From Bacteroidales bacterium (lineage in GTDB: Bacteria; Bacteroidota; Bacteroidia; Bacteroidales; GCA-2748055), in assembly GCA_023138875.1 (NCBI GenBank), contig JAGLOO010000003.1:1498-65497 (forward strand): a stretch of DNA of 64,000 bases. The letters are read 5' to 3'. Both the position numbers and the translations under genes were made by a program. Numbering within the stretch: the stretch's first letter is position 1; each line of letters opens with the position of its first letter. The notes below the pieces were generated by a model. That model worked only from the letters and a program-made list of their open reading frames with translations. It ran no database searches and was not told the DNA's origin. Below, piece after piece: positions 23,335 to 39,865 of this stretch.

Positions 23335-26300
23335 TCATTTTATTGGTTTAAACAACATGGAAGACGGAATATTAATCCTCTCGAGGTCCGGACTGGAAAT
23401 AAAAGCTTTGAGGTGAAATCCACCTCCTGCCTGAAAGTAACTGATCCGCAAAGTGTGCTTTCCTTCAGAGAGAATGATCTGTCCCTGTTTTTCAAGGGCA
23501 CCGTGTAAACCGTCGTTTGTTATGACAAGCTTCCCGTCGATATATAAATTACTTCCATCATTTGAATTCAGGTAAAAGGTGTACAGTGCTGTTGCCGGAA
23601 TTTCAATCGTCCCTTTGAGGATTAGTCCGAACTTATCCTGCTTAAAAGGAATCTGATCCAGTCCTATCTCATATATTGTACCAGTGCGCACGGGTTCGAG
23701 AGAAGTGAAATCCGGAATTCTTTCCCAATTGCCTTCATAATACTGATACCTCAGTCCATTTTTCTCCGGATTAACAAAAGTTAAGGAACTTGTTTTATAT
23801 GAACTGGGTTTGTAGCCGGTTCTGTAAACTTTCGCTTTAATGATTGTATTGCTGTTGATTTTAATTGGTTCTGAATAGACCGGGGAGTGTTCATCCGGTT
23901 CTTTCCCGTTAAGGGTGTATCTGATTATTGCATTTTCTTCTCCGCTGAGGATTTGTACAGTTGCTGTATCCGGTAGGAATAAAAGAGAATCTGCAGGTAT
24001 GATTTTTGGCACCGAAAGTCTGGATACCTGTATTAGATTTCTGACATTTTTTAAGACAAATTCATAATGCCCCGATTCCACCTGGTATTGTACCAAGGAA
24101 TCTTTGAATTTAATGAAAGAAGCATCTTTGCAATTTTCTGCTGTCCCATTATTGATGGTTACATCATCCGGATCTGTCGCAGGAAGCATTATGGTGGCTG
24201 TACTGTTAGCAGGAATATCAAGTTTTAAAATGAGATTGTTCCCATCCCATTCCCATCCCGATTCAATGTTACCGTAAACCGATTTATATGTGGCCCTGAC
24301 ATGGTTCAGGTTCCCGACAGGCCGGGGTTTAATAATGATGTTCCTGAAACCGGGATGTTCCGGATCGGGATTGATACCTGCAAGGGCCTGATAGAACCAC
24401 TGACATACACTGCCAAACATGGGGTGACTGTGAGAGGCATCTCCCCGCCATGTTTCCCAGATGGTGGTTGCCCCCTGGTCAATTGCATAGCCAAAGCTTG
24501 GGTAATCATGCTGGTTCATCATCGAGTATGCCAGGTCTACACGGCCATATCGGGTCAGAACGTCGAGTACAAGTGGTGTTCCCATCATTCCGGTATCAAA
24601 GTGCTCACCGGTATTGGATTCTATGTTGCATACGAGGGATTTAAATACTTCCCTGATCCTGTTTTCAGGAACCAGTCCAAATCCCAGGGCAAATACATTG
24701 GCGCCCTGACGTCCGATGGAGTAGGATTTGATGCTTTCCCGGTAATATTCCCTGTTAAAAGCTTCTTTCGTCTGAACAGCAAGATCTTTGAAATAACCGG
24801 AATCTTCAGGTATATTTAAAACAGATGCGATGTCAGACATTAGCTTCAAATCGTAATAGTAATACGCCGTACTGACCAGGGAAGGTGGTATTTCTGTTAC
24901 ATCAGGCGGCACCCATTCTCCCAGTTTCTCTTCATTGATGATCCCTGATCCGCCAGTAAGATGTGTCAGGTATTCAATCCATTTCTTCATTCCGGAATAG
25001 TGCTGCTTCAGAATGTCTTCATCGCCATAATAGAGGTACATGTACCAGGGAATGATGATATAAGCTGAACCCCATGCAGTCCCGCCACCCCCACTCTGGA
25101 AAGGCACAGTATTGGGAACATAACCGGTTGTGGTATTCTGGGCATCCTTCAGGTCGTTCATCCATTTTGTATAAAAGGAAGCCATATCAAAACTGAAGAT
25201 GGCGGCCTGTGCTGCAATCTGGCCATCTCCTGTATAACCCCTGCGCTCCCTGTGCGGACAATCGCTGGGAATGCCGCCATGCATATTCCCCAGCTGGGTC
25301 CTCTGAAAGTTGTCCAGTATTGTATTGAAAAGTTCATTTGAACTATGAAAAGTACCTGCCGGTTGCACATCGGTATTCACTACCACTCCTGTAATGTTAT
25401 CCAGGGAAAGGGGTACAGGAGACGATACATCAACGCAGCGGAATGCATGCCACGTAAACCGGGGCTCCCATACTTCAGATCCCAGCCCTTTCAGAATATA
25501 ACTGTCTGTTTGCCCATATCCGGAGCCTGCCTCTTCAGTAAAATTCATGGTAATGACCGTACCCCGGGGACCGTTCACATTAAGTTTTACCCATCCTGAG
25601 ATCATTTCACCAAGGTCATAGCGGTATATACCTTCCGCAGGTATGGTCATGCGAACCGGTTTGATAGTCCTGGTTATCCGGTCGGGCGGGGACATCTGTG
25701 CTCTTAATTTACCTGTTGGCGGACGCACTGCTTCTGACATTACCCGGTTATCTTTTGTAAAACCGGTGTTGTTCCACATCCCTTCCTCAAGGCGGGCATC
25801 ATAAATTTCACCACTGTATACTCCATTATGTAAAGCCGGACCAAAGGAGGCTTCCCAGGAACCATTGCTTAAGATATTTTCCCGGGTTCCATCTGAAAAT
25901 TCAATCTCAAATTGTGCAATAAACCGGGGAGAGTCGTAGGAATAGGGCAGATCCTCTTTTCTCTCATTTTGAAAATACCATCCATTGCCCAGGCATACTT
26001 CAAAGCTGTTTTCTCCCTGCCGGATAAAAGAGGTGATATCCCAGGTCTCATATAAGACCCGGGTGGACATGTTTCTGACCCCCTGTTCGTCAAAATCTGC
26101 CGGAGATTGCCGGCGATCGTAATTGGTGTGATTGGGTGATAATACGTGATCCCCCACTTTTACCCCATTGATATACAATTCATAATATCCGAGTCCGCTG
26201 ATATAGACACGGGCTTTGCTAATCCGGTGTGGAAATTCAGCGCTTTTACGGAAATGAATTGCAGGATCCATTCCTTCGGGTTTGACCTTTTGATATTGGT

Positions 26301-26736
26301 CCAAACCTATCCATTCTGCATGCCAGTCACCGGGATCAAGTCCCATCTCCCAGGTGGCGGTTTTGCTCCAGGCTGAAGGATTTCCATTGCGGTCCCATAT
26401 GCGAACTTTCCAGAAAACCTTCTCCCTGGGTTCCAGTTCCTCTCCCTGGTAAACAATATGCACCGACTGTCCTGACTCAATTTTCCCGGTATTCCAGAGA
26501 TCCCCTTTGTTTTCCGTAAGCAATTTTTCACTGCTTGCCACCAGAATGTGATAGGCAGTTTGTTTCTGCCCATTATGTTTCGCAAAAATTTTCCAATCCA
26601 AACGCGGATTTTGAATGTCAATCCCACACGGATCCTCCAGGTATTCACATTTCAGATCACTGACATTTGGCTGATCTGTCGTGCAACTGCTGGTGAACCA
26701 GACAAGGAATATTAAAATGATCGCTGGAACTTTCAT
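23335..26736 (-). CDS. GH78 alpha-L-rhamnosidase with C-terminal chitobiase-type and PA14 modules
   Basis: 1133-aa ORF. The N-terminus LKCEYLEDPCGIDIQNPRLDWK is typical of bacterial rhamnosidase N-domains, followed by an (alpha/alpha)6 core. IRYTLNGKEPDEHSPVYSEPI is a CHB_HEX_C-like module. The PA14-like tail spans 23338-23772. Confidence 0.85.
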   Translation of the reverse strand: MKVPAIILIFLVWFTSSCTTDQPNVSDLKCEYLEDPCGIDIQNPRLDWKIFAKHNGQKQTAYHILVASSEKLLTENKGDLWNTGKIESGQSVHIVYQGEELEPREKVFWKVRIWDRNGNPSAWSKTATWEMGLDPGDWHAEWIGLDQYQKVKPEGMDPAIHFRKSAEFPHRISKARVYISGLGYYELYINGVKVGDHVLSPNHTNYDRRQSPADFDEQGVRNMSTRVLYETWDITSFIRQGENSFEVCLGNGWYFQNERKEDLPYSYDSPRFIAQFEIEFSDGTRENILSNGSWEASFGPALHNGVYSGEIYDARLEEGMWNNTGFTKDNRVMSEAVRPPTGKLRAQMSPPDRITRTIKPVRMTIPAEGIYRYDLGEMISGWVKLNVNGPRGTVITMNFTEEAGSGYGQTDSYILKGLGSEVWEPRFTWHAFRCVDVSSPVPLSLDNITGVVVNTDVQPAGTFHSSNELFNTILDNFQRTQLGNMHGGIPSDCPHRERRGYTGDGQIAAQAAIFSFDMASFYTKWMNDLKDAQNTTTGYVPNTVPFQSGGGGTAWGSAYIIIPWYMYLYYGDEDILKQHYSGMKKWIEYLTHLTGGSGIINEEKLGEWVPPDVTEIPPSLVSTAYYYYDLKLMSDIASVLNIPEDSGYFKDLAVQTKEAFNREYYRESIKSYSIGRQGANVFALGFGLVPENRIREVFKSLVCNIESNTGEHFDTGMMGTPLVLDVLTRYGRVDLAYSMMNQHDYPSFGYAIDQGATTIWETWRGDASHSHPMFGSVCQWFYQALAGINPDPEHPGFRNIIIKPRPVGNLNHVRATYKSVYGNIESGWEWDGNNLILKLDIPANSTATIMLPATDPDDVTINNGTAENCKDASFIKFKDSLVQYQVESGHYEFVLKNVRNLIQVSRLSVPKIIPADSLLFLPDTATVQILSGEENAIIRYTLNGKEPDEHSPVYSEPIKINSNTIIKAKVYRTGYKPSSYKTSSLTFVNPEKNGLRYQYYEGNWERIPDFTSLEPVRTGTIYEIGLDQIPFKQDKFGLILKGTIEIPATALYTFYLNSNDGSNLYIDGKLVITNDGLHGALEKQGQIILSEGKHTLRISYFQAGGGFHLKAFISSPDLERINIPSSMLFKPIK

Positions 26737-26757
26737 ATGTCAAGTGGGCTTCGCATA

Positions 26758-27148
26758 TCATAGCCATGCTTTTTCTATTTGTCTTCTTAATTGTGGTATT
26801 AGCAGGTCTGGAAGTATCGTTCTCCGATCATTATCTCCTTTGCCGGAACGAACAACAATCTCATTGAGGTCGAAGTCAAAATCTTCCAGTGGTTTTTTCA
26901 TCTTTATTGTGTAAAAAACAAGCGCATTTAATGCCTGGTTTTGAGTGGATGCGGAAACCTTTCTTTCAACTGCAAGGGAAGTGAGGAATTCTCCAATCTC
27001 CTTCCCCCCACATCTCTTCAGGATATCTTTTATTATGGAAAATAATAAACCGGTATATCCATCCTATATAAGTCTTTTCTGTGCTATAGCTGAAATGATT
27101 TGTGCGAATTACTTCCCTGACATGGTCTAAAAACTTCGATCCTTTCAT
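26758..27148 (-). pseudogene. intI: integron-integrase (IntI-type tyrosine recombinase) pseudogene
   Basis: ORF 26966-27148 reads MKGSKFLDHVREVIRTNHFSYSTEKTYIGWIYRFIIFHNKRYPEEM (IntI N-terminal SAM-like domain). After the C-run at 27004-27009 the sense continues in another frame: EIGEFLTSLAVERKVSASTQNQALNALVF. It then jumps to DFDFDLNEIVVRSGKGDNDRRTILP...QIEKAWL-stop. The catalytic regions are missing. Confidence 0.75.
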
Positions 27149-27149
27149 C

Positions 27150-27323
27150 TGCCGATAAGTATTGATGTATATTCATGAAATATAATATATTATACTGCAT
27201 TTTGCTACAATATGGCTATGATATTCCATATTATACCGCAAACTTGATTTCTATTGAGTATCGGTATAATATGCTTATATTTATTGTATTGCCGCTATTG
27301 GCAGTAGAATATAATGTTCCATG
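27150..27323 (+). other. candidate attI region and attI/cassette-1 junction (G|TT at 27316|27317)
   Basis: AT-rich stretch directly upstream of the intI start. GTTCCATG at 27316-27323 is the exact reverse complement of CATGGAAC (28964-28971), the 5' box of the first attC-like site. Confidence 0.35.
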
Positions 27324-27678
27324 TCTTCAGATTCATAATCCTCTTTGTGGAGCAGATCCTTCAGATTCAGGAGATCGGTGAGCGGACTGTAGGTTACTCC
27401 GAATGGATTCTTCGTAACCATGAAGAGGCATTTCAAGTAAGGCTACAATTGGACCAGAAGTATTCGAATTTGATGACCGATTGAGTTATATCAACCGATA
27501 ATTATAAACAATGGAGCCAGTCTCATTTATCACCACGAACCCGGTATACAGATTGCTAAAGAAACATTTATGAAGATAAAATCACGATATCTGGGTGTTC
27601 TGGCAGCTGGATTTACAATGAGCAATATCCATGGTTCATGAAAGATTACTTTTAATACATAAAACGGAGGATTGAGGT

Positions 27679-28740
27679 ATGAAAAAGATCATCATTGGAA
27701 TAGCAGGGATTCTGGTAATTCTTATCATCATTTTTGTTCTAAAGCCAGCCCCCATTGACCCAGCGGCCTATATTCCTCCTGATGCTCAGGAGTTAACAGG
27801 AGTCTTGACACCAAACAACCTTTTGCAGGAGGCCGAGCTATTGGCTTTGGGAAAGATAAATGGTCCGGAAGAGGTTGCAGTGGACAGTCAGGGTCGTGTA
27901 TTTGGGGGAACACAGGATGGAAAAATAATTCGTCTTTTGCCAGATGGCAGGTTGGAGACATTTGCTGCAACTGGCGGTCGACCTCTGGGAATGAAATTTG
28001 ATGAGAATGAAAACCTGATTGTTTGCGATTCTTATAAAGGCCTGCTCTCTATCAATCCCCAGGGGGAGATCAAGATTCTGGCCACCTCAGCAGATGGAGT
28101 TCCATTTAAATTCACCGATGCCCTAGATATTTCCAGTGACGGGACAATCTACTTTACGGATGCAAGCTCCAAATATGACCAAAGCGAATATCTATATGAC
28201 CTGTTGGAATCAAAACCGCACGGTAGATTTCTGAGCTATAATCCAGCCACCGGTCAGGTAAAAGTCTTATTAAAGAATCTTTATTTTGCCAACGGGGTTG
28301 CCTTATCGCATGACGAAGACTTCGTATTAATTAACGAAACCTACCGTTACAGGATCACCAGGTATTGGTTGAGAGGCCCCAAAATGGGGACACACGAAAT
28401 CTTCATTGATAATCTACCCGGGTTTCCTGATAACATATCAAACAACCAGAAGGGCACATTCTGGCTGGCTCTTTTCACAATTCGAAACGAATCAGCAGAC
28501 AAACTCCACCCCTTTCCCTTTCGAAAAACCCTACTTTCTAAACTGCCCAAAGCTTTATGGCCGAAACCACATCCCTATGGCCTAGTCCTGGAACTGGACG
28601 CACATGGGAATATCATCCAAAGCTTACATGATCCCACAGGAAAAAACCTTAAAGAGATCACCTCCGCTCAAGAATATGGGGGTTATCTTTATCTGGGTGG
28701 TTTACACAACGATCGGATTGGAAAATATAAATTGCCATAA
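27679..28740 (+). CDS. strictosidine-synthase-like (SSL / SMP-30-type six-bladed propeller) protein with N-terminal TM anchor; cassette 1
   Basis: 353-aa ORF with GGAGG 8 nt upstream of the ATG. The pattern GPEEVAVDSQG ... LIVCDSYKGLL ... FTDALDISSDGTIYFTDAS ... FANGVALS ... GFPDNI is typical of bacterial SSL proteins. Confidence 0.75.
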   Translation: MKKIIIGIAGILVILIIIFVLKPAPIDPAAYIPPDAQELTGVLTPNNLLQEAELLALGKINGPEEVAVDSQGRVFGGTQDGKIIRLLPDGRLETFAATGGRPLGMKFDENENLIVCDSYKGLLSINPQGEIKILATSADGVPFKFTDALDISSDGTIYFTDASSKYDQSEYLYDLLESKPHGRFLSYNPATGQVKVLLKNLYFANGVALSHDEDFVLINETYRYRITRYWLRGPKMGTHEIFIDNLPGFPDNISNNQKGTFWLALFTIRNESADKLHPFPFRKTLLSKLPKALWPKPHPYGLVLELDAHGNIIQSLHDPTGKNLKEITSAQEYGGYLYLGGLHNDRIGKYKLP

Positions 28741-28963
28741 CGAAGGAATGGATCAGACTGCTAATCCAGATAATAAAAATGCGGGCAATTCTTCGTACGT
28801 ATCTTTTCCACTCCCACAAGCAATGAGGATTCTGTTGAGGAGTGAAATAACGAAGCCGAGGAAAATCAATAGCTATCAATCTGCTTTAATTTATCTGAAC
28901 GTCCATCTGGATTTTCCTAGACAAGAATTTTTCTCAAACAGTTAGTGAAGAATAATTGATTGA

Positions 28964-29063
28964 CATGGAACAAATCACTAAAGCCGACCGTGACGAGTGT
29001 CACGCACTTTGCAGAAAGGCAAAGTCCGCGCCAAGCTACGGCGGCTTAGTTCCACCGTTATAT
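28964..29063 (+). other. attC-like recombination site 1
   Basis: 5' box CATGGAAC and 3' box GTTATAT. The arms AACAAATCACTAAAGCCGACCG (28969-28990) and CGGCGGCTTAGTTCCACCGTT (29039-29059) form an imperfect inverted repeat with bulges. The central 48 nt holds two small hairpins. Confidence 0.6.
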
Positions 29064-29170
29064 GCTTTGGTTAAAATTATTGTTTTTAGGATAATAGAAA
29101 AATTTAGACAAATATGCTTAAACATGGGAAATTGTCATTTCGAAAAAATAACTAAGAAAGGAGTAATAAA

Positions 29171-31129
29171 ATGTATACCAAAAATTTAAATATCATTTTT
29201 ACAACTATCGTAGCAGTGTTTGTTTGCATGTTTATTTCCAAAGTAGCAGCCTCAGATTTATTATCTCAAGAGCAACCCGCTTTTTCATCGTCTGATGAGC
29301 TAGAATCACTAACTGTAGATAAAGCGGTTGATGGTAATATTTCAACACGCTGGGCTTCTGCTGAAGGTTCTGACCCAGAATGGATCTATGTTGATCTCGG
29401 CGTTGAGGCTTCGATTGATAGTGTTGTTTTGAACTGGGAGGTTGCATACGGCAAGGATTATGAAATCCAGGTTTCAAGCGATTCAAGCTCTTGGGAAACA
29501 GTTTATTCCATAACGGGCGGCGATGGCGGCATGGATGAACTCTCTGTTTCAGGGACTGGACGTTATGTGCGAATGTATGGCACTGCACGCGGTACGGTGT
29601 ATGGTTATTCATTATGGGAGTTTAAGATTTACGGGGCAATTGATGGAACAACAATGTATGATCTAAAGACTCAAGCGATTGGTTCCGGCTACGTCCATCC
29701 TTCAAGCGGCACTTATAGTGAAAACGTATGGGCTGAAATAGAAGCAATCCCCGATTCAGGGTGGCGGTTTGACCGCTGGGAAGGAGACTTGTCAGGAAAT
29801 ATGAATCCCACGGCCATTAAAATGGATTCCACCAAAAATGTGACTGCAGTTTTTGAACAAAAAATTATACCCACACAATCACCCGTAGGCATAAATGGAC
29901 AATTAAGTGTTGACGGCCTTAAGCTGGTTAACCAATATGGTAATCCAATTCAATTGAGAGGCATGAGCACCCACGGTCTTCAATGGTTTTGGAATAATTA
30001 TACAGATGAATCGCTGGATGTCCTTGCTTATGAGTGGGGCGCCGATATATTACGTATTTCAATGTATGTACAAGAAGGCGGTTGGGAAACAAACCCAGAT
30101 GGATTTACTGCTAAGGTCAGTACCTTAATAAATAAAGCAACAGACCGCGGAATGTATGCTTTGGTGGATTGGCACCAGCTGGAACCTCCCGATCCTAATT
30201 ATAATTTAACTAATGCAATTACCTTTTTTACGGATATCGCAACAGCACACCACGCCCAAAACAATATTATCTACGATATTTGTAATGAACCCAGTGATGT
30301 TTCCTGGACACAAATCAAGACTTATGCTGACACTTTAATCCCGATAATTCGTGCCATAGACCCAGATGCTGTGATTTCGATGGGTACTCATGGATGGTCT
30401 ACTTTAGGTGTTGCTGATGGAAAGTCACATCAGGATATTCTCGATAATCCGGTGAATTTCCCAAATATTATGTACGGTTTCCATTTCTATGCGGGTGGCC
30501 ACAAAAAACCCTATCTTGATGAACTTGATAAGGCATCAGATGTGCTACCTATATTTGTGACCGAGTGGGGAACACAATGGTATGATGGAGATCAGGAAAA
30601 TGACTTTGAAAATTCCCAAAAGTATATCAACTTGATGGCCGAGAAAAAGATTAGCTGGACAAATTGGAATTATTCTGATGACTTTCGTTCAGGAGCCGTT
30701 TGGAAAGATCCGCAGACAGGTGCTAATAATGGCCCCTGGACAGATGCTAATTTAAAGCCATCTGGTGTATGGGTTAAAGATAAAATTATGAATCCCCCTG
30801 ACGATTTTCCAACTGATGTCACATCGATTAGTGCAGATCCAACTGAATCGACAACGGCAGTTCCCGATAAATTTGAATTGCAACAGAACTATCCGAATCC
30901 ATTTAATCCAGAGACAAAAATAGATTTTAATGTAAAAGAACAATCACATGTTGAGTTAAGTATTTATGACATAAATGGGCGGTTAATCAAAAATCTTATT
31001 AATAGAAAGTATCCAGCTGGTTCATATGAAATTAAATTTAATGCAAAAAATTTATCATCAGGGATTTACTTTTATTCAATTAAAATGGGTGAATATCACT
31101 CAGTAAAGAAAATGATTTTAGTGCAATAA
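29171..31129 (+). CDS. GH5 endoglucanase (cellulase) with N-terminal F5/8 type C (CBM32-like) domain, bacterial repeat domain and T9SS C-terminal sorting domain; cassette 2
   Basis: AGGAG 7 nt upstream of the ATG. Discoidin-like AVDGNISTRWAS...WEFKIYG. GH5 motifs RGMSTHGLQWF, ICNEPS (acid/base) and VTEWGT (nucleophile). Tail LQQNYPNPFNPETKIDF...GIYFYSIKMG...KKMILVQ. Confidence 0.85.
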   Translation: MYTKNLNIIFTTIVAVFVCMFISKVAASDLLSQEQPAFSSSDELESLTVDKAVDGNISTRWASAEGSDPEWIYVDLGVEASIDSVVLNWEVAYGKDYEIQVSSDSSSWETVYSITGGDGGMDELSVSGTGRYVRMYGTARGTVYGYSLWEFKIYGAIDGTTMYDLKTQAIGSGYVHPSSGTYSENVWAEIEAIPDSGWRFDRWEGDLSGNMNPTAIKMDSTKNVTAVFEQKIIPTQSPVGINGQLSVDGLKLVNQYGNPIQLRGMSTHGLQWFWNNYTDESLDVLAYEWGADILRISMYVQEGGWETNPDGFTAKVSTLINKATDRGMYALVDWHQLEPPDPNYNLTNAITFFTDIATAHHAQNNIIYDICNEPSDVSWTQIKTYADTLIPIIRAIDPDAVISMGTHGWSTLGVADGKSHQDILDNPVNFPNIMYGFHFYAGGHKKPYLDELDKASDVLPIFVTEWGTQWYDGDQENDFENSQKYINLMAEKKISWTNWNYSDDFRSGAVWKDPQTGANNGPWTDANLKPSGVWVKDKIMNPPDDFPTDVTSISADPTESTTAVPDKFELQQNYPNPFNPETKIDFNVKEQSHVELSIYDINGRLIKNLINRKYPAGSYEIKFNAKNLSSGIYFYSIKMGEYHSVKKMILVQ

Positions 31130-31132
31130 AGC

Positions 31133-31262
31133 CATATAACAATGGTATGCACCAGAAAACAAACGCGTGCGGTTTCTTTGTAGGTTATCGTTCCGAGTAA
31201 GTGTGTGGCATTTTATCCATATTAGCCGCTGTGTTTGTTTCTGGTGATACCCCCCGTTATGC
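31133..31262 (+). other. attC-like recombination site 2
   Basis: Starts 4 nt after the GH5 stop. 5' box CATATAAC and 3' box GTTATGC. The arm GGTATGCACCAGAAAACAAAC (31144-31164) pairs with GTTTGTTTCTGGTGATACC (31233-31251) over 19 bp, with two single-base bulges. Confidence 0.65.
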
Positions 31263-31412
31263 AAAGGAGACGAAAATGAACCCCAGACAAAAGAAAGCTC
31301 TATCTATCGGATATAGCAGTTATCATTCTAATGGGCCTTTTGGCGCCATGGCAAGAAATTCAAGCAATAAGAAATTGGGACGCATCCCATTTTTGAAAAA
31401 GAGGGTCGGAAT

Positions 31413-32474
31413 ATGAAAAAAAATAATTCTCGGGATAGTTGGGATTCTGGCAATTCTAATAATAATCTTTCTTCTCCGATCGGCCTCCATTGCCCCAGCG
31501 GCTTATACCCCTCCTAAATCGCAAGAGTTAGCGGGTGTGCTGGCACCAAACAACCTTTTGCAGAAGGCCGAGCTTTTGGCCTTGGGGAAGATTAATGGTC
31601 CGGAAGAGGTGGCAGTGGACAGTCAGGGCCACGTCTATGGAGGAACGCAGGATGGAAAAATTATGTGTCTTCTGCCGGATGGCAAGCTGGAGACTTTTGC
31701 CGAAACCAAAGGTCGCCCCTTAGGCATCCAATTTGATAAGAATGAAAACCTAATTGTCTGCGATGCCTATAAGGGTTTACTCTCCATTAATCGCCAAGGG
31801 AAAATCAAAGTTCTGGCCACCTCAGCGGATGGAGTTCCCTTCAAGTTCACCGATGCCTTGGATATTTCCAGCGATGGGATTATCTATTTTACGGATGCAA
31901 GCTCCAAGTATGTGCAAAATGAGTACCTCTATGACCTTTTAGAATCAAAACCGCATGGCAGATTCCTGAGCTACGATCCAGCCACCGGCCAGATTAAGAT
32001 TCTATTGAAGAACCTTTATTTTGCCAACGGCGTGGCCTTATCTCAGCAGGAGGACTTCGTTTTGATTAATGAGACTACCGTTACAGGATCGTCCGGTACT
32101 GGTTGAAGGGCCCCAAGGCGGGAACACACGAGATCTTTATTGATAATCTGCCAGGATTTCCTGATAACATTTCAAGCAACCATAAGGGAACATTTTGGCT
32201 GGCTCTTTTTACGGTTCGGAATGAAGCCGTGGACAAACTCCATCCCTCTCCCTTTCTAAAAGCTCAAATGTCAAAACTGCCCAAAGCCTTATGGCCTAAG
32301 CCAAAGCCTTATGGCCTGGTCTTGGCTTTGGATGAACAAGGGAAAATCATCCAAAGCTTACATGAACCCACAGGAAAACACCTTAAGGAGATCACTTCCG
32401 CTCGGGAATATGGCGGTTATCTCTATCTGGGCAGTATACATAACGATCGGATCGGAAAATATAGATTACCTTAA
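31413..32474 (+). pseudogene. second strictosidine-synthase-like gene, frameshifted; cassette 3
   Basis: Paralog of 27679-28740. The ATG at 31413 is followed by an A8 run (31416-31423); with A7 it reads MKKIILGIVGILAILIIIFLL..., matching copy 1. A second -1 shift near 32075 (GAGAC-TACCG vs GAAACCTACCG in copy 1) splits ORFs 31537-32106 and 32103-32474. Confidence 0.75.
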
Positions 32475-32654
32475 TGCTTTATTAATATACGAACACAGAG
32501 GCCGCCCCAAAATAATGACATAAAGTTTGCTTCCTATTTCATTTAGATCCCTGAAAGGAGGCGAGACTGTGTCATTCAAAGAATAAGTAAAAAGGGGGCA
32601 GATTTATTTACTGAGAAGTAAGAGTATCACCTATTTTATGAAAAATAAATTGCC

Positions 32655-32730
32655 TGACAACCGCAATATCACGGACTGGCAATTCCGCTGCGCTCCATCG
32701 CCAGCCGGTTATGCGGAGCGTTCTGCGATC
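32655..32730 (+). other. attC-like recombination site 3 (less canonical)
   Basis: 5' TGACAAC and 3' GTTCTGCGATC. The arm CCGCAATATCACGGACTGGC pairs with GCCAGCCGGTTATGCGG, with three bulges and one mismatch. The 5' box does not complement the cassette-3 start. Confidence 0.45.
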
Positions 32731-32820
32731 AAAAATAAGTAATGGAAATAGTTGGGAGGTACGTTTATTTATAAGTTACCCAACATAATAAAAATGAGCA
32801 ATGATTAATAAAATACGATT

Positions 32821-33861
32821 ATGATTTCACCATTATTTAGCCATCTTTTAATACCCTATATTATTGCTATGTTTTTGGCAATAACAATGGGCGGTAGCGG
32901 AACTGCACCTGCATTCTCAGCGGCTTATGGAGCTAATGTCATAAAGAAAAGTTTGATTCCCGGTTTATTTGGAATTATGGTTTTCCTTGGTGCAATTATA
33001 GCGGGGAAAGGTACCGCAACTACAGTAGGGAAAGATTTATTAGCACCTGAAATGATGTCATTTACGGTGGTATCAATTATTCTTTTTTCAGTAACTATTG
33101 CTCTGTTGATTGCTAATTTGTTTGGAATTCCACAATCTACTAGTCAAGCAACGGTTCTATCAGTTACTGCCGTTGCATTATATTTCAATGACCTGAATAC
33201 TGACAAATTATTTATGGAAATCCTGCCAACTTGGTTTATTTTACCGATAGGTTCATTTTTCATCAGCTTATTTATTGGTAAATATATTTATCGTCCAATG
33301 AGAAAAAGGGGATATACTCTGCCTAGAGCTCAAAATGAGAATCTTAAACCCGTTTGGAATGGATTATTGGTATTAATGTCATTATACGTTGCTTTTACCA
33401 TTGGAGCGAACAATGTAGCCAATGCTGCTGGACCAATTGCATCAATGACTGCAAATGAACTTAACATATCCATAGATGAAAATTTTATAATAATAATGAT
33501 ATTGTCAACCCTGATTGTTGCACCTAGTTTTGGAATAGGAAGTTCAATTTTTGGACATAAAATTGTAAAGAATACAGGAAAAGAAATTGTATTATTTGGG
33601 AAATTCGAAGCCGTTATAATTGCTTTTGTGTCCGCCAGCTTATTGCTATTAGCCTCTATAACAAAGGGAATCCCTTCTTCATTAGTCCAATTGAATGTCG
33701 CAGCAATTTTAGGAATCGGGGTTGCAAAATTAGGAGCTAAGAACATCTTTAAAAAAACAGCAGTCAAAAAATTCTTTTTAATGTGGGTAATAGCACCAAT
33801 TATTGCATTTTCATTATCATTATTCCTAACATATTTGGCTGACCAATATGGATACTTATAA
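32821..33861 (+). CDS. PiT-family inorganic phosphate transporter; cassette 4
   Basis: 346-aa polytopic membrane ORF. The duplicated PiT signatures are GGSGTAPAFSAAYGAN and IGANNVANAAGP. Confidence 0.8.
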   Translation: MISPLFSHLLIPYIIAMFLAITMGGSGTAPAFSAAYGANVIKKSLIPGLFGIMVFLGAIIAGKGTATTVGKDLLAPEMMSFTVVSIILFSVTIALLIANLFGIPQSTSQATVLSVTAVALYFNDLNTDKLFMEILPTWFILPIGSFFISLFIGKYIYRPMRKRGYTLPRAQNENLKPVWNGLLVLMSLYVAFTIGANNVANAAGPIASMTANELNISIDENFIIIMILSTLIVAPSFGIGSSIFGHKIVKNTGKEIVLFGKFEAVIIAFVSASLLLLASITKGIPSSLVQLNVAAILGIGVAKLGAKNIFKKTAVKKFFLMWVIAPIIAFSLSLFLTYLADQYGYL

Positions 33862-34183
33862 AATTTTCGTTGGGTAATAACAATGTATATAAAAAACAGG
33901 CGGGATAGCAGTAAAATGAAGAGTTGTAGCCCGCTTTAACTATTGTGTAACTTGATAGTGTTGAAGCCCGCAAGCGCCTACTTTTCATACACTTAACGTT
34001 GAGCAAGGAAGTAGGCCGCCCGATCAAGGAAAAGATCTCAGTAAAGAAATACAGGATTGTGTCAAACAGTAGCCTCCCAGAAGCTGAACTTTGCTCATTT
34101 GAAGCTGGTGGCGTTGTCCAAAGTAAATGGAAGACTGAACCAGATGCACAAGCTTAGTTGAAGTGGGCAGAACAAAAAAATTA

Positions 34184-34248
34184 GATCGCAGAACAAATCA
34201 CTAAAGCCGACCGCTTGCAGCGCCGCTTAGTTCCACCGTTCTGCGATC
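34184..34248 (+). other. attC-like recombination site 4 (compact, ~60 bp)
   Basis: GATCGCAGAAC (34184-34194) is a perfect 11-bp inverted repeat of GTTCTGCGATC (34238-34248). The inner arms are identical or near-identical to site 1, with a 7-nt centre and unpaired spacers AAAT / TCCACC. Confidence 0.7.
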
Positions 34249-34472
34249 AAAACATAGAGATGGGCGTAGGTAAGAGGTTCGTTTATTTTGAAGTTGTATG
34301 CCGTCCGGAAAGCCCTTCCCGCATTTGGCACATTTGCAAAGCCTCACAAGCCAACCTGCAACCTAAGCTTTGCAAAAGAGCCAAATTTTCCCAGTCGCCA
34401 GAAACTACAAATAATTACCAGTATTTTGATTTACTGGCGTTTTTTAGATTTCCAAAATATGCCATATTTTCT

Positions 34473-34480
34473 TATCTTTG
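34473..34480 (+). promoter_or_regulatory. candidate Bacteroidota -7 promoter element (TAnnTTTG) for abiEi/abiEii
   Basis: TATCTTTG lies 19 nt upstream of the ATG at 34499. Motif match only. Confidence 0.25.
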
Positions 34481-34498
34481 GCAAAAATTGGGTTTAGA

Positions 34499-35266
34499 AT
34501 GCCAAAGGTTATAGAAAATAGACTGATCGAAGAATTTAAGGACAGGGAGTACTTCACGAGAGAAGAGCTCTTTGACTTCTACCGCTACTTCGAACCAGAA
34601 TTGAAAGAAGGAACTTTCGGATGGAGAATCTATGATCTGAAAAAGAGGAACATCATCAAGCCTATAAAAAGAGGGCTTTATGTAATTACTTACAAACTCA
34701 GATATAAACCGGATATCTCACCAAGTCTACTAAAAATCGCCAAGCAATTAACAGAACGATTCGGTGAGATAAAACACTGTATTTGGGAAACGGTGTGGCT
34801 GAATGAATTTACCCAACACCAAACAAGCAGATCCACCCTATTCATCGAAATAGAAAAAGGCTTTGAGGAGTCATTATTTTACGAGTTGAAGGATACGGTA
34901 CGAAGAGAAGTATTTCTAAATCCGGATGAAAAAGCCATCGATTTCTACATTGCAGAAAGCAATCAGCCGATTATCATAAAGAAGCTGCTCACAAGAGCAC
35001 CGCTTTCAAAAAGAATGGAGAAGAGGATCAAGTTCTACACACCCACACTTGAAAAAATCCTGGTGGATTTGTTCGCAGAAGAGAAGCTATTCTATTTTGT
35101 GAAAGGTTCTGAATTGATGCACATATACGAAAATGCTATCAACAGCTACACTATCAATTTCACCAAGCTTTTCAGCTATGCCAAACGTAGAGAACGGGAA
35201 CAGGATATCAAGCAGTTCATGACCAATCATATGTTTCACCTTGTAAAAGACATTATCGATAATTAA
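34499..35266 (+). CDS. AbiEi-type antitoxin-like protein (type IV TA, wHTH N-terminus)
   Basis: The track ORF starts at TTG 34478; the ATG at 34499 gives MPKVIENRL.... The N-terminus FTREELFDFY...WRIYDLKKRNIIKPIKRGLY fits the AbiEi N-domain pattern. It sits directly upstream of an AbiEii-like gene. Confidence 0.6.
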   Translation: MPKVIENRLIEEFKDREYFTREELFDFYRYFEPELKEGTFGWRIYDLKKRNIIKPIKRGLYVITYKLRYKPDISPSLLKIAKQLTERFGEIKHCIWETVWLNEFTQHQTSRSTLFIEIEKGFEESLFYELKDTVRREVFLNPDEKAIDFYIAESNQPIIIKKLLTRAPLSKRMEKRIKFYTPTLEKILVDLFAEEKLFYFVKGSELMHIYENAINSYTINFTKLFSYAKRREREQDIKQFMTNHMFHLVKDIIDN

Positions 35267-35291
35267 AGACAAATGCTTTACAGAAGAGTGG

Positions 35292-36089
35292 TTGGATCAA
35301 TTCAAAAAGCAAAAAGACCACAAGCGAGTCGACAAGATCATTCTTGAAAAAATGATTTATGCGCTGCATTTATTAGAGCGACTCAAATCAAATGGGCATG
35401 ACTTTGTATTTAAGGGTGGCACAAGTCTGGTCTTGCTGCTGGACGAAGGCAACCGATTCTCCATTGATATCGACATAATCAGCAAGACCAGTCAGGAAGA
35501 CTTGGAAGGTATTCTCGACAAGATCATTGATTCATCACATTTTTCCGAATGGAAGCTGGATGAACATCGCAGTTATCAACCAGGAGTGCTGAAAGCGCAC
35601 TATAAGTTTCCCTTTGATACCATCATTCAGGGTTCTGGAACTATTCTTCTGGATGTACTAATTGAAGATTCCATTTACCCGGAACTAATCGAAAGACCTA
35701 TAGCAACAAAATGGATTGAAACAGATAAAGAGACCATGGTCACAGTACCTTCCATAGATTCAATCACGGGAGATAAACTGACTGCTTTTGCTCCCAATAC
35801 TATTGGGATTCCTTATTTCAAAGGAAAAGACCAACAGCCGTTCTCCATGGAGATTTGCAAGCAGCTATTCGATCTGAGTAAGTTGTTCGAGAAGATTGAA
35901 AACATGGAAATCGTAGCAGCAAGTTTTAAAGCTTTTGCTGAACAGGAAATTGAATATCGGAAAAATGGAAATCCGGCATTAGCACTAACTCTTGACAAAG
36001 TGTTAAAAGACATGATAGATACGTGCGCCATACTGGTAAAAAGAGAGCGTGGGACCAATGAGGAGAAGGCCAAGACATTAAGGAATTGA
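35292..36089 (+). CDS. AbiEii/AbiGii-family nucleotidyltransferase toxin-like protein, reading frame apparently disrupted near both ends
   Basis: FVFKGGTSLVLLL...RFSIDIDI is the family core. The track start is TTG. A well-placed ATG at 35273 is in another frame. After the stop at 36087-36089 a different frame continues as ...IKELTIEHLDWNFLNRLKRQPDKSGFYYWYKTVELVSNTQ-stop (36198). Confidence 0.6.
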   Translation: MDQFKKQKDHKRVDKIILEKMIYALHLLERLKSNGHDFVFKGGTSLVLLLDEGNRFSIDIDIISKTSQEDLEGILDKIIDSSHFSEWKLDEHRSYQPGVLKAHYKFPFDTIIQGSGTILLDVLIEDSIYPELIERPIATKWIETDKETMVTVPSIDSITGDKLTAFAPNTIGIPYFKGKDQQPFSMEICKQLFDLSKLFEKIENMEIVAASFKAFAEQEIEYRKNGNPALALTLDKVLKDMIDTCAILVKRERGTNEEKAKTLRN

Positions 36090-36207
36090 CTATTGAACAT
36101 CTGGACTGGAATTTCTTGAACCGTTTGAAGCGACAGCCAGATAAATCAGGCTTCTATTATTGGTACAAGACCGTTGAATTGGTCAGTAATACACAATAAA
36201 CAGAAAA

Positions 36208-37488
36208 ATGATCACACAAGATAATTTCAAGGAACTTCTATTGAAACTTGGCTTCTCCGAGAAGGGAGATATTTTCACCAAAAAGTTCAAAGAAGTAGAT
36301 GCCTACCTTAAGGTTGACTACAAGGCTGAAAAACTTATCTATCCTGAAGACAAGGGATTGACTATAAACGAAAGGCAAACCTGTAACTTCTCTCAAAAGG
36401 AAAACTTTGTTGTTTTTGAATGTGTTCATAGACTTTTTGAGAAGGGCTATAATCCACTACACATTGAACTTGAACCTAAATGGAAAGTTGGACATGGTGC
36501 CAGTGGTGGTCGCGCGGATATTATGGTGAAAGACAATTCAGGGAAGTCTTGACTCATAATTGAATGCAAGACAGAAGGAAAGGAATTTGAAGATGCCTGG
36601 AAAAAGACGTTAATAAATGGAGGTCAATTACTTTCCTATGTAAAACAAGCGGGAAGCACGCAATTTGTTTGTTTATACGCTTCTGACTATTTGGATAACA
36701 AAGTAGTGCCAAACTATTACTTAATCACATTAAAGGACAACAAAAGACTACTGGACGAACTTGCTGAAAAAACACCACTATCATATAAAAAAGCAAAAGG
36801 ATTAGACGTTGAAGATATTTTTAAAGCCTGGAAAGAAACCTATGCTCAGGACTACGCAACCAAAGGAATATTTGAAGATGATATTCCTGCTTATGAAATA
36901 GGAAAAACTAAGTACTCTCTTAAGGACTTGAGCACCATTAGCAGCAATGATATTCAAGGGAAGTATCACAAATTTGCTACCATATTGAGACAGCACAATG
37001 TGTCCGGTCGTGAAAATGCCTTTGACAAGCTGGTTAATTTGTTTCTGTGTAAAATAGTTGATGAAACCAACAACCCAAATGAACTCAAATTCTATTGGAA
37101 AGGAATCGCTTATGATGATCAATTTAGCTTAATCGACAGATTACAAAAGCTTTATCAGGACGGAATGCAACGATTTCTGGGAGAAGATGTGGCCTATATC
37201 AGTGCAGAACAGATCGATAAAGCCTTTGATTTTTTTAAAAACGATCCGGATGCAACCAAAGATACGATCAAGAAATATTTCAAAGAGCTCAAGTTCTTTA
37301 ATAACAACGACTTCGGGTTTATTGACGTCCATAATGAAAAGTTGTTTTATCAAAACACTGCCATTCTGCTGAAGATCGTCCAAATGTTACAGGATATAAG
37401 ATTGAAAACTGAAGACGTTTCCTTCGTCTTGCGGGAACCAATATTTACTATGTCATGTTTCTCAGAATTTGTGATGCCAACTGGTTGA
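36208..37488 (+). pseudogene. restriction-modification N6-adenine DNA methyltransferase (type I/IIG-like) N-terminal portion, with in-frame stop and 3' truncation
   Basis: ORFs 36208-36552 and 36691-37488 share one frame, separated by TGA at 36550-36552 (..KDNSGKS*LIIECKTEGKEF..). The family-like sequence runs to ..LLKIVQMLQDIRLKTED and then degenerates. No SAM-binding or NPPY/F region is present. Confidence 0.6.
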
Positions 37489-38648
37489 CTAAAAAGGGGG
37501 AGGGGTGAAAAATCCGCTTCCTTTAGCCGCCAGTGGGTACTCATAAGGCTGGTTTTTTCGCCTTCTTTGTCAACCTGGTAATAGACAGTCAGGATTGAAC
37601 CATCCTCAAGCTGGACAGATGCGGGATAGCCCAGATCAGAGTTTATAGCCGGGTTTATCATTATTTCTTTGCCTGTTTCCCATGTTTTACCACCATCCCT
37701 GCTAATGCAGGCCTTTTCTCCAAAAGGTTCCCGCCGAACGCCATAAGAGACCAAAAGCAAACCATTTTGTAATTGCATAAGATGGGGTGGGTAACCCCAT
37801 ATTCCAGTTTTATGGCTGGTGGTCCAGCTTTTACCCCCATCGTAGCTTTCCGACTGCCTCAGGTGTGACTGATTGTGGTCTGCTGGATTGTATCGAAACA
37901 TAGCCACAAGTTTGCCATCTGAGAGTTCAACCACATGGGGCTCATGGGCAAAAGTTACCTGGTCCTCACTGTCTAATGGAATGGTGGAAATGAGCTGCCA
38001 CGATTGTCCGTCATCGGTAGACTGCTCTACCCCGATTATTTTCTTATCATTCACATAGCCAGTGCCCACATAGAGCAATCTGCCATCGGATAGTTCTATT
38101 GGCTCATGAGGGGCAGAAACAACCTGTTTTACGGGTTCTTCCCAGGATTTACCACCATCCAGGGACCTCCTGGTCCAGTTACCTATCCAGTATTTTTTGG
38201 TTTCATCTCCCAGTTTATCTGCATGACGTTTCCAGGATGGATTCCTGTCATAAAACTTTTTTGTATCAAAAGCCAAAGAGGTAAACCAGTTTACCAGCAG
38301 GGTTCCCTTTGTTGTCTCAAGGATTCCTGCATCTCGGTCATCGAGCGGCGTATTGTTTATTGTCTCGGGATCGGTCCAGGTTTCGCCATGATCGGTACTG
38401 CGAATCATCTGGGTAATTCCAAACGGGCATACATGGGCATCGCGGTTACCGGAAAAGACCACCAGCAGTTCGCCCGACCTGGTTTTGGTAATACTTGGCC
38501 AGCCAATGTATTTGCCAGGCTGCTTGCAAATGACCCTGGTGCTAATTATATCTGCATAAAGGCCAGGTTTTTCAACACTGAGAACAGGTATCGAGGTGAA
38601 AAATAAAATGGTGAAAACAATCTTCAAGCATTTGTTAATCAGTAACAT
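37350..38648 (-). CDS. BNR/Asp-box sialidase-superfamily beta-propeller protein
   Basis: Five Asp-boxes: STDHGETW, SLDGGKSW, STDDGQSW, SYDGGKSW, SRDGGKTW. The start MLLINKCLKIVFTILFF at 38648 avoids overlap with the upstream gene. The last ~45 codons overlap the methylase fragment and look like read-through (see findings). Confidence 0.75.
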   Translation of the reverse strand: MLLINKCLKIVFTILFFTSIPVLSVEKPGLYADIISTRVICKQPGKYIGWPSITKTRSGELLVVFSGNRDAHVCPFGITQMIRSTDHGETWTDPETINNTPLDDRDAGILETTKGTLLVNWFTSLAFDTKKFYDRNPSWKRHADKLGDETKKYWIGNWTRRSLDGGKSWEEPVKQVVSAPHEPIELSDGRLLYVGTGYVNDKKIIGVEQSTDDGQSWQLISTIPLDSEDQVTFAHEPHVVELSDGKLVAMFRYNPADHNQSHLRQSESYDGGKSWTTSHKTGIWGYPPHLMQLQNGLLLVSYGVRREPFGEKACISRDGGKTWETGKEIMINPAINSDLGYPASVQLEDGSILTVYYQVDKEGEKTSLMSTHWRLKEADFSPLPLFSQPVGITNSEKHDIVNIGSRKTKETSSVFNLISCNIWTIFSRMAVF

Positions 38649-38680
38649 ATCGATATTAATTACAAATAAACGAATCCTGA

Positions 38681-39865
38681 CTATAGATGAAGCTTTTCTT
38701 TTTTGACCGGAAGTATATTCCGCACGATCCATTTCCTCATTTCCTGACCCTCCGGGCTTTGCTGCGGATAAGAGATAAAATCAAGTTTTATCCCCAGTTT
38801 TTGTTCGATTAAATGTGCTATTATTGGCCAGATAATTCCAATGTCACCAACTATTGGAATACTATTTTCCAGCCGGGCGAAACCAGACATTTCCATTCGA
38901 AATGGGATACTCATTAATTTTGTCTTTGGCATCCCTTTATCAATGGCCTGCTGTACAGTGCCGGATTCTTTTTCGAAATCACAGGCTTTTTTCAAATTCG
39001 GATCGAAATCAATGCGTATCAACGTCTTCCCTTTCAGACTGTACGTTGGATATCCTTCCCAATTTGACCAGATTCCATGACCGGTGTATGTTTCAAACGG
39101 TCCGTCATGGATTTCCTGGGTTAAGGCAACTGCAGACTCAATAATCACATCAGCGCTGCTCATCATTTCAGCAATTCTCGCTGTTCGTTCCATTATTGAA
39201 ATCGAATCTGCCAGAGCTGTACCAACCATTCCACCACCGATCAGTTGTGGAACTGTAACCAGACACGGAACGTCTTTCTTTACGGCAGCACCTAACATTG
39301 TGCGCTCATCTGCTCCTGCTCCGGCGATAACCTCAAAAGGGAGCCCTTTTGATTTTGCAATAAACAGAATCTCTTTTGCCAGATTCTCAGTTCGCAAACC
39401 CATCGGGTATGCCATATTTCCAGCCGCTTTGATGATCACATCACCTTCAAGTGACAGGGCTTTATCAATTATGCCGGTGTCGATGATCATCTCTTTTTTT
39501 AGCTGATCAAGCAATTCCGGAGACATTTTAGTGATTTCGAAAATCTCGCCACGTGGCAGTATGTTTCCAGGGAATCCCAATTTCTTACCATCAACTCTTT
39601 TAACTTCATCCAAAACACCTGCCATTTCATGCGCCACAACCGCCGAACTTGTTGTTACGCCATCAACGACTCCTTTATTAATAAGTTCAGCAATAAGCGT
39701 TGTAACGCCTTCATGAAGGTTGGGTCCGCTGCCTGTGACGACAACTACTTTACCCTGTTTTTTTTTAGCTTCGACAATACGATCTACAGCTCTGTCAACC
39801 ATTTCCCTGCCTGATGGCTGTAAATCATTATATAACTGTTTTATAAGCTCCCTGTTTGAATTCAT
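38681..39865 (-). CDS. conserved hypothetical protein, possibly deoxyhypusine-synthase-like Rossmann fold
   Basis: 394-aa ORF 11 nt downstream of kdsB. VVVVTGSGPNLHEGVTTLIAELINKGVVDGVTTSSAVVAHE loosely recalls the DHS-family pattern. The assignment is weak. Confidence 0.45.
   Translation of the reverse strand: MNSNRELIKQLYNDLQPSGREMVDRAVDRIVEAKKKQGKVVVVTGSGPNLHEGVTTLIAELINKGVVDGVTTSSAVVAHEMAGVLDEVKRVDGKKLGFPGNILPRGEIFEITKMSPELLDQLKKEMIIDTGIIDKALSLEGDVIIKAAGNMAYPMGLRTENLAKEILFIAKSKGLPFEVIAGAGADERTMLGAAVKKDVPCLVTVPQLIGGGMVGTALADSISIMERTARIAEMMSSADVIIESAVALTQEIHDGPFETYTGHGIWSNWEGYPTYSLKGKTLIRIDFDPNLKKACDFEKESGTVQQAIDKGMPKTKLMSIPFRMEMSGFARLENSIPIVGDIGIIWPIIAHLIEQKLGIKLDFISYPQQSPEGQEMRKWIVRNILPVKKEKLHL

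Follow-up and report, generated by a model that had tools for sequence, protein, structure and literature searches.

The most familiar integrons are those that gather antibiotic-resistance genes in Proteobacteria, and sedentary chromosomal integrons with species-wide attC families are exemplified by the Vibrio cholerae superintegron and its VCR family. The recombination of the folded bottom strand of attC by the integrase IntI at G|TT is established integron biology. The canonical sites of mobile integrons, such as attC-aadA7, are described by an R''-L''-L'-R' model with extrahelical bases, G and T. Chromosomal integrons with inactivated integrases are known in Xanthomonas pathovars, and clusters of attC without a nearby functional integrase form the CALIN class of IntegronFinder. 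The locus described here lies in a 64,000-nt stretch of a Bacteroidales bacterium (assembly GCA_023138875.1, contig JAGLOO010000003.1, positions 1,498 to 65,497), referred to as the window, and contains a set of attC-like repeats. Our analysis indicated that the repeats are very probably integron attC-type sites which separate cassettes beside a broken intI gene, and that the whole represents a fossil sedentary chromosomal integron. The fossil array spans 26.76-37.5 kb and consists of an intI pseudogene, an attI-like junction, six co-oriented cassettes and five attC sites. The original prediction, made from the letters of the sequence, had listed four sites and overlooked both a fifth one (33879-34000) and the integrase remnant. 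The elements of the platform and the sites are as follows.

26761-27148, minus strand: intI pseudogene, frameshifted, internally deleted and C-terminally truncated
27264-27318, plus strand: attI-like region, ending in the crossover triplet GTT at 27316-27318
28965-29063, plus strand: attC site 1, 91 nt from AAC 28969 to GTT 29059, in the ~92-nt class of a conserved family
31134-31262, plus strand: attC site 2, 121 nt from AAC 31138 to GTT 31258, outside the family of sites 1 and 4
32655-32726, plus strand: probable attC site 3, 64 nt from AAC 32659 to GTT 32722, atypical or degenerate
33875-34004, plus strand: attC site 3b, 122 nt from AAC 33879 to GTT 34000, absent from the four sites of the original prediction
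34188-34244, plus strand: attC site 4, 49 nt from AAC 34192 to GTT 34240, short class of the site 1 family

Sites 1 and 4 share both arms. The identical 22-nt 5' arm that had been claimed, AACAAATCACTAAAGCCGACCG, was found exactly at 28969-28990 and 34192-34213 and only there, and the common 16-nt 3' arm, GCTTAGTTCCACCGTT, was exact at 29044-29059 and 34225-34240. A third copy of AACAAATCACTAAAGCCGACCG was not present in the 64-kb window at up to 3 mismatches, for a chance expectation of 0. The centres were described less exactly: with the same arm limits, the centre measures 53 nt rather than 48 nt in site 1, and 11 nt (CTTGCAGCGCC) rather than the 7 nt of CTTGCAG in site 4. The two small hairpins of site 1 do lie at the positions given for them (GTGAC/GTCAC, 28990-29003; CTTTGC/GCAAAG, 29007-29024), but side by side and not nested, and the second position of the GTGAC/GTCAC hairpin was a Watson-Crick pair in just 22% of the family copies.

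The first 20 nt of the 5' arm, searched with one genome per species, retrieved 57 loci from 37 species-level metagenome-assembled genome (MAG) assemblies. Among these, 25 are labelled Bacteroidota, many of them Bacteroidales, with several contigs of 0.1-1.9 Mb; 11 carry labels of other phyla and 1 is unclassified. Requiring both arms, each with at most 3 mismatches, and counting the two of the window, we obtained 168 unique elements with a spacing of 0.4-3.4 kb, and within every locus all copies stood on one strand. The search for further array members that the original prediction had proposed thus yielded 166 further copies in co-oriented arrays. In the relatives, 5-9 near-identical family copies were counted in each 8-kb tile, with ~80-95% of their bases shared with site 1, and site 1 reached up to 95% identity to copies in Bacteroidales MAGs. 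The fetched loci are denoted by L-numbers; the 8-kb tiles are consecutive blocks (e.g., L019 and L053, 8000 + 2811 = 10811), and overlaps between tiles of the same contig, sought as proof of array continuity, were none, the tiles being consecutive. The arm sequences had no match as strings in the open-access literature.

The intervals between the sites behaved as cassettes. All substantial open reading frames (ORFs) at 27.6-37.5 kb are on the plus strand, and the units were delimited as follows.

27317-29057, plus strand: cassette 1, a strictosidine-synthase-like / SMP-30 family gene (27679-28740, Pfam) and site 1
29058-31256, plus strand: cassette 2, a GH5 cellulase (29171-31129, Pfam) and site 2
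31257-32720, plus strand: cassette 3, a paralogue of the cassette 1 gene (31413-32474), with repeats D1 and D2
32721-33998, plus strand: cassette 4, a PHO4/PiT-family phosphate transporter (32821-33861, Pfam) and site 3b
33999-34238, plus strand: cassette 5, 240 nt with no convincing ORF, ending in site 4
34239-36089, plus strand, end not defined: cassette 6, DUF6577 (AbiEi-like, 34478-35266) and an AbiEii toxin (35292-36089)
36208-37488, plus strand: broken gene on the distal boundary of the cassette island, with an in-frame stop at ~36550

Because the crossover at G|TT leaves the bases after GTT with the next cassette, the flank of R'' is expected to pair with the start of its own cassette. 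Across 110 consecutive pairs, the complementarity of the 7 nt located 5' of R'' to the first bases of their own cassette averaged 5.03/7 positions, compared with 3.13/7 for the physically adjacent R' and 2.84/7 for random sequence. In the window, the ends of cassette 1 matched at 7/7 positions (GTTCCATGTC at 27316 and GACATGGAAC at site 1) and those of cassette 2 at 5/7 (GTTATATG at 29057, start TTATATG, and the R'' flank of site 2, CATATAAC). The R'' of site 4 (GATCGCAGAAC) paired 7/7 with GTTCTGCGATC at 32720, and the TTCTGCGATC start follows both site 3 and site 4. In the family as a whole, 92 of 94 cassette ORFs were co-oriented with the sites, the median cassette measured 955 bp, and the stop codon stood ~60 nt (median) before R''.

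These results bear directly on the explanation which the original prediction had itself named as the one that would speak against it, namely that the shared arms belong to a generic repeat of the repetitive extragenic palindromic (REP) or miniature inverted-repeat transposable element (MITE) type, scattered genome-wide and unrelated to gene mobility. The element is indeed short, palindromic, highly conserved and multi-copy, and the data on this genome are those of the 64-kb window. However, the evidence of strand, cassette logic and integrase contradicted such a repeat: in each of 56 loci all copies lay on one strand, the intervening ORFs followed the orientation of the sites (92/94), integron integrase genes adjoin the arrays, no further copy was present in the remaining 53 kb of the window even at up to 3 mismatches, and the R'' flank matched its own cassette start over its physical neighbour, which a MITE or REP would not yield. 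We therefore regard a generic repeat as extremely improbable.

Structural analysis of the family alignment showed a single long imperfect hairpin, composed of the R box, a 5/6-nt bubble, an L stem whose top-strand 5' arm bears two bulged A's, and an extended stem. In sites 1 and 4 the bubble is AAATC/TCCACC, followed by ACT[A]AAGCCG[A]CCG paired with CGG CGGCTT AGT; site 4 closes with an 11-bp R''/R' stem. The support for the structure consists of a hand-drawn hairpin, the percentage of paired cells relative to slid controls, and the asymmetry between the strands. The hairpin paired 90.5% of the alignment cells, compared with 28-41% in the slid controls, and the AAC/GTT R boxes were 93-95% conserved and paired. 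G.T mismatches numbered 151 on the bottom strand versus 49 on the top strand (p=3e-13; 21/29 pairs), and 93.8% of the cells paired on the bottom strand versus 90.5% on the top. Since the G.T bias was 151:49, the bottom strand is the strand that has been kept foldable, as in attC. The bottom strand of site 1 folded with z = -3.6. The attC architecture that had been proposed was thereby borne out for sites 1 and 4, with their R boxes, unpaired spacer, bulged bases and variable centre, and for site 2, with its R boxes and two single-base bulges on the same arm.

GC-rich hairpins at a median of ~60 nt past the stop codons could also be taken for intrinsic transcription terminators or attenuators placed after each gene. 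Against this, the stems are not followed by a T-run, the internal bubble and the bulged bases are conserved, selection acted on the non-transcribed (bottom) strand, the flanks obey the cassette logic, and no Rfam match was obtained in 26000-38000 at E<=1. Terminators as the explanation of the repeats have, in our judgement, almost no likelihood, and a secondary terminator effect of the attC hairpins is possible.

The short site 4 belongs to a recurrent class. The family comprised elements of ~49 nt (19), ~92 nt (113), ~108-125 nt (23) and 133-134 nt (11), the longer classes being formed by inserts in the terminal loop, and the short class combines the same arms with a tetraloop-sized centre (e.g., L048, AACAAATCACTAAAGCCGACCGCTTGCGCGGCGGCTTAGTTCCACCGTT). 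Because the family has modular sizes that include the ~49-nt class, which recurs in other genomes (19/168 copies, site 4 counted), the short form of site 4 is a recurrent natural class and not a local deletion. The original view of site 4 as a minimal version of site 1 was accordingly upheld.

The remaining sites are of other types, although all five begin with AAC and end with GTT. The attC-geometry scan covered both strands of the whole window and 3594 AAC...GTT candidates, with an ad hoc score. Site 2 scored highest in the whole window (16.0), followed by site 3b (14.2); site 1 scored 11.0 and site 3 scored 10.8 (top ~0.4%). The stem of 19 bp with two single-base bulges that had been claimed for site 2 was found as 5+6+8 bp, with both bulged bases on the top-strand 5' arm, and no relatives of site 2 were present among the fetched loci. 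Site 3 satisfied the arrangement of spacer and extrahelical bases only loosely, while its R', GTTCTGCGATC, is a genuine cassette start. The homologue of site 3b in L053 has arms that differ and yet stay mutually complementary in an alignment inspected by eye, and the homology of L042 starts exactly at the GTTGAGC of site 3b; apart from this L053 homologue, sites 3 and 3b had no close relatives in the fetched loci. The statement that the sites form a homogeneous family therefore did not hold in the window, where sites 2, 3 and 3b are other types and 2/5 belong to the family. The associated argument, from homogeneity to a sedentary integron, was supported by the homogeneous arrays of the relatives and by the lack of copies in the plasmids scanned; in the window itself the homogeneity is weak. 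A scan for AAC...GTT hairpins by constrained minimum free energy was dropped as unspecific, with long branched folds at the top of its ranking.

The integrase remnant occupies the position of intI in a classical integron, directly ahead of attI and transcribed away from the cassettes. Six-frame translation recovered residues 1-98 of a 327-aa IntI, with a frameshift near residue 48, and then residues 144-186, so that a ~45-aa internal stretch and everything past residue 186, the catalytic half, are absent. A tblastn search of the window with the intact IntI of L002 gave the same three pieces (residues 1-48, 47-98 after the frameshift, and 144-186). The remnant matched the integron integrase model TIGR02249 with E=4e-32 and PF13495 with E=5e-24, and was 76% identical to the IntI of L019. 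A rhamnosidase gene begins 25 nt past it.

The putative attI was recognised by its conservation in relatives. The 55 nt before GTT were 90% identical to L026 6324-6384 and were conserved in L033 too, with the likeness lost in the L033/L026 alignment at or after GTT 27316; the bases that follow this triplet (CCATGTC) paired 7/7 with the R'' flank of site 1. Within the region lies a short inverted repeat, TGCCGCTATTGGCA (27290-27303). An alternative attI junction, GTTATAT at 27485, was discarded in favour of GTT 27316, the one that fits both the homology break and the R'' pairing of cassette 1. A 56-aa ORF that extends into cassette 1 begins with an ATG at 27314-27316, which overlaps the putative crossover triplet (aatATGTTcc); this ATG may be fortuitous or may be a translation start embedded in attI.

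No functional integron-type recombinase was found next to the array, and the sole intI within the 64 kb is the pseudogene. As the integrase is without its catalytic half, the array would be unable to rearrange on its own. A working integron whose cassettes are shuffled in trans by an intact IntI elsewhere in the genome was considered as a rival. In its favour, site 2 retains an intact long stem, site 1 reaches 95% identity to copies in other arrays, and the MAG MFD03804.bin.1.21, with family arrays in both orientations on a 1.95-Mb contig and another on a second contig, showed that one genome can hold several arrays. The altered upper stem of site 4, the atypical site 3, the distal end of the array without attC and the lack of a second intI in the 64 kb all tell against such activity, as does the independent assembly of the locus in L058 (an ENA metagenome contig), which was 99.96% identical with the same cassette order. 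We consider cassette shuffling in trans unlikely, though it retains an appreciable share of the probability, and favour the fossil integron.

Integrases were kept better in some relatives. IntI genes adjoin the arrays in L002, L019, L033, L047 and L057 and are transcribed away from the cassettes. The IntI of L002 (327 aa) scored 412 bits against TIGR02249 (cutoff 265), and its residues 4-319 aligned with VchIntIA (PDB 2A3V) at E=1e-88, unbroken across residues 190-240, which we take to be the integron-specific segment. The IntI of L033 was also intact, in a full-length tblastn alignment of 318 aa. Decay was observed as an internal deletion in L019 (4415-5263) and a frameshift in L057 (5316-6204), and in L026 the attI-like sequence (6324-6384) is kept while intI is gone. 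Integrase decay is thus common in the lineage, with intact copies kept in L002 and L033. The same 196-aa gene stands beside intI in L002 (7172-7762) and L057 (4638-5228), whose IntI proteins are 72% identical; the shared neighbour suggests inheritance of the integron platform at a constant place in the chromosome.

The setting of the array is chromosomal in character, its flanks consisting of glycan-utilisation genes of the polysaccharide-utilisation-locus (PUL) type (rhamnosidase, SusD-like and BNR). This matters for the possibility that the integron is a mobile one, carried on a transposon, plasmid or conjugative element. Near-identical attC in MAGs assigned to at least 8 phyla, and a single low-GC cassette in the 65% GC DNA of a Halothiobacillus, indicate that family cassettes travel, but cassettes can move without movement of the platform. 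No transposase, relaxase or conjugation genes were found among the genes scanned around the array, no family attC copy was found in 72,556 plasmids, the arrays lie on contigs of 0.1-1.9 Mb, and the 196-aa neighbour recurs beside intI in two species. A mobile integron is accordingly very unlikely, and the array is best read as a sedentary one.

The cargo of the fossil array is varied. The GH5 cellulase of cassette 2 carries an F5/8-type-C domain and a type IX secretion C-terminal tail. The gene of cassette 3, which shares 81% nucleotide identity with that of cassette 1, carries a frameshift in the window, due to a 1-nt deletion at 32075/6. All nine differences between L058 and the window fall within cassette 3 (31880-32076), and L058 is without the frameshifting deletion; these differences could have arisen by conversion between the paralogous genes, from a mixture of strains or as an artefact of assembly. 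The region of the PiT transporter was split into cassettes 4 and 5 because site 3b lies between them.

A stretch of ~190 nt before site 4, 33999-34191, recurs in L042 (3811-4004) and L053 (~950-1145). Cassette 5 was 84% identical in nucleotides to L042 and ~72% to L053, while its sole ORF (52 aa, TTG start) showed just 56% (L042) and 41% (L053) amino-acid identity. Because this ORF is less conserved than its DNA, it is probably non-coding. As a structured RNA, cassette 5 folded no better than shuffled sequences on either strand (z = +0.78 and +0.11). The stretch 33999-34191 appears to be a conserved non-coding cassette.

The shared start of the cassettes after sites 3 and 4 that had been noticed before, GTTCTGCGATCAAAA, was exact at 32720-32734 and 34238-34252, and the likeness runs on for 74 nt at 72% (repeat D3). 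Cassettes 4 and 6 open with the same ~58-nt leader, TTCTGCGATCAAAA...GGTACGTTTATTTATAAGTT (32721-32777 and 34239-34295). The leader was also observed at L019 7686-7743, with shorter pieces in L024, L042 and L055. The leader might serve as a promoter or translation signal carried by the cassettes, or might reflect common descent.

The AbiEii of cassette 6 is a nucleotidyltransferase toxin (Pfam). The broken gene beyond it (36208-37488) matched no Pfam family at E<0.01; our own reading of the translation tentatively suggests the N-terminal portion of a restriction-modification enzyme that has lost its C-terminal part. The final ~140 nt of the broken gene are shared with the convergent BNR-repeat gene (37350-38732, minus strand). 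The geometry scan found no attC after cassette 6 or after this gene.

Several observations weigh against the integron interpretation of the locus and moderate it. Among the sites, the fold of site 3 was not superior to that of shuffled sequence (z = -0.57), and the start of cassette 3 is not matched by the R'' of this site. The upper stem of site 4 differs in its 3' half from those of the short-class elements L048 and L005 and pairs more weakly, and the site has a geometry score of just 8.3, within the top ~3.5% of candidates by an ad hoc measure whose background contains false positives such as 49776-49851 and 15773-15898. The R'' of site 4 pairs with the starts of cassettes 4 and 6 and not with that of cassette 5; cassettes 4 and 5 may have travelled together, or site 3b may be unused as a junction. 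Homogeneity within the window is weak, with two of the five sites alike. In the family, the R' consensus GTTCTAC departs from the textbook GTTRRRY, with C at position 4 in ~60% of copies; GTTCTAC was the commonest form, followed by GTTATAT, GTTAGGC and GTTCCAC (alignment A1, columns 113-116). Covariation was weak in the mutual-information analysis of a family that is almost invariant, and RNAalifold gave no consensus structure on the 109-sequence family alignment; it is because of this near lack of covariation that the structural case was built on the percentage of paired cells and the strand asymmetry. The genome is seen here through 64 kb, and a second intact intI may lie elsewhere. Finally, the sequence shows the anatomy of the locus, the family membership, the cassette boundaries, the strand bias and the decay of the integrase, whereas the chemistry of recombination and the former activity of the array are inferred from these signatures in the light of integron biology.

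According to the mechanism we propose, the bottom strand of each attC would fold into a hairpin with the R''/R' stem (AAC/GTT), an unpaired central spacer, the L''/L' stem bearing two extrahelical bases, and a variable terminal structure. IntI would recombine this hairpin with attI or with another attC at G|TT, and the exchange would allow cassettes to be excised as circles and re-inserted. The family of sites 1 and 4 would mark the cassette pool of a Bacteroidales/Bacteroidota clade of chromosomal integrons. The array in the window would be frozen and decaying, with the stem of site 4 altered, site 3 atypical and the terminal attC absent.

Whether this pool extends further was considered in relation to the labels of the other assemblies, which were SAR324, Acidobacteriota, Spirochaetota, Thermodesulfobacteriota, Calditrichia, Peregrinibacteria, Aminicenantes and Halothiobacillus. 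Apart from the Halothiobacillus locus, L031, these cross-phylum labels may result from mis-binning or chimeric assembly. In L031 (6537-7095; MAG contig JAGXIF010000041.1), the clearest instance of apparent leakage, a single cassette of ~47% GC was observed in DNA of ~65% GC. It contains a 149-aa CMP/dCMP-deaminase-like ORF and a 92-nt family attC, with perfectly matching ends GTTATGTG / CACATAAC, and represents either a cross-phylum cassette transfer or a chimeric contig. A wider reading, to which we give, all its parts together, somewhat less than an even chance, is that the family constitutes one very large shared cassette pool, a Bacteroidota counterpart of the Vibrio VCR. Under this tentative proposal a single IntI clade might keep AACAAATCACTAAAGCCGACCG...GCTTAGTTCCACCGTT near-invariant in at least 25 Bacteroidota species; the 49-nt core could have been extended by inserts in the terminal loop to 92, 122 and 133 nt; cassettes might leak into unrelated phyla, as the Halothiobacillus case supports; and units without an ORF, such as cassette 5, could be non-coding cargo.

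Bacteroidota are merely listed as an integron host phylum in previous work (PMC8618304, PMC9668308). Integrons of Bacteroidota are thus on record already. As noted at the outset, attC clusters without integrase and decayed chromosomal integrons are known kinds as well. The near-invariant arms in at least 25 Bacteroidota species, the four lengths, the GTTCTAC R' and the apparent cross-phylum leakage are mildly new. Chromosomal integrons outside Proteobacteria have been catalogued and barely described, and the locus offers a handle on one such lineage, with a defined attC family whose 20-mer retrieves arrays across dozens of uncultured Bacteroidota. The intact integrases of L002 and L033 match the family and are open to experiment, and the several independent integrase decays bear on how sedentary integrons die. 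The cargo, with a GH5 cellulase bearing a type IX tail, a PiT transporter and an AbiE toxin-antitoxin pair, is of ecological interest. For annotation, 26.8-37.5 kb should be treated as a horizontally assembled and now frozen cassette island.

In comparison with attC-aadA7, the family shares the AAC/GTT R boxes, the 5/6-nt unpaired spacer, a variable terminal structure that sets the length, an R''/L'' arm with two single extrahelical bases separated by 6-7 nt, and the bias towards folding of the bottom strand. In contrast to that site, the family has T at both extrahelical positions of the bottom strand, and pairing between the R'' flank and its own cassette start often covers 7-11 nt, beyond the 7-bp box.

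The likeness to the Vibrio cholerae superintegron lies mainly in the relatives, whose IntI aligns end to end with VchIntIA and whose co-oriented, mostly single-ORF cassettes stand between near-identical attC on the chromosome; the window array adds a toxin-antitoxin cassette (AbiEi/AbiEii). It differs from the superintegron in its Bacteroidota host, in an attC sequence unrelated to VCR, in four modular lengths (~49, 92, 122 and 133 nt) instead of one, and in having GTTCTAC and not GTTRRRY as the commonest R'. Unlike the superintegron, the window array is also short (6 cassettes), of mixed attC types, and has a dead integrase.

The decayed integrons of Xanthomonas and the CALIN class resemble the window in having at least two attC without a functional intI, the window having five at 28969-34240; at the head of the window array an intI pseudogene can still be recognised, and the cassettes appear frozen and starting to decay. 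What distinguishes the present case from these systems is that several relatives (L019, L057 and L026) show independent decay of intI, and that, in contrast to CALIN, the window keeps a recognisable attI-like junction and the N-terminal third of intI and thus represents a degraded complete integron rather than an orphan cluster.

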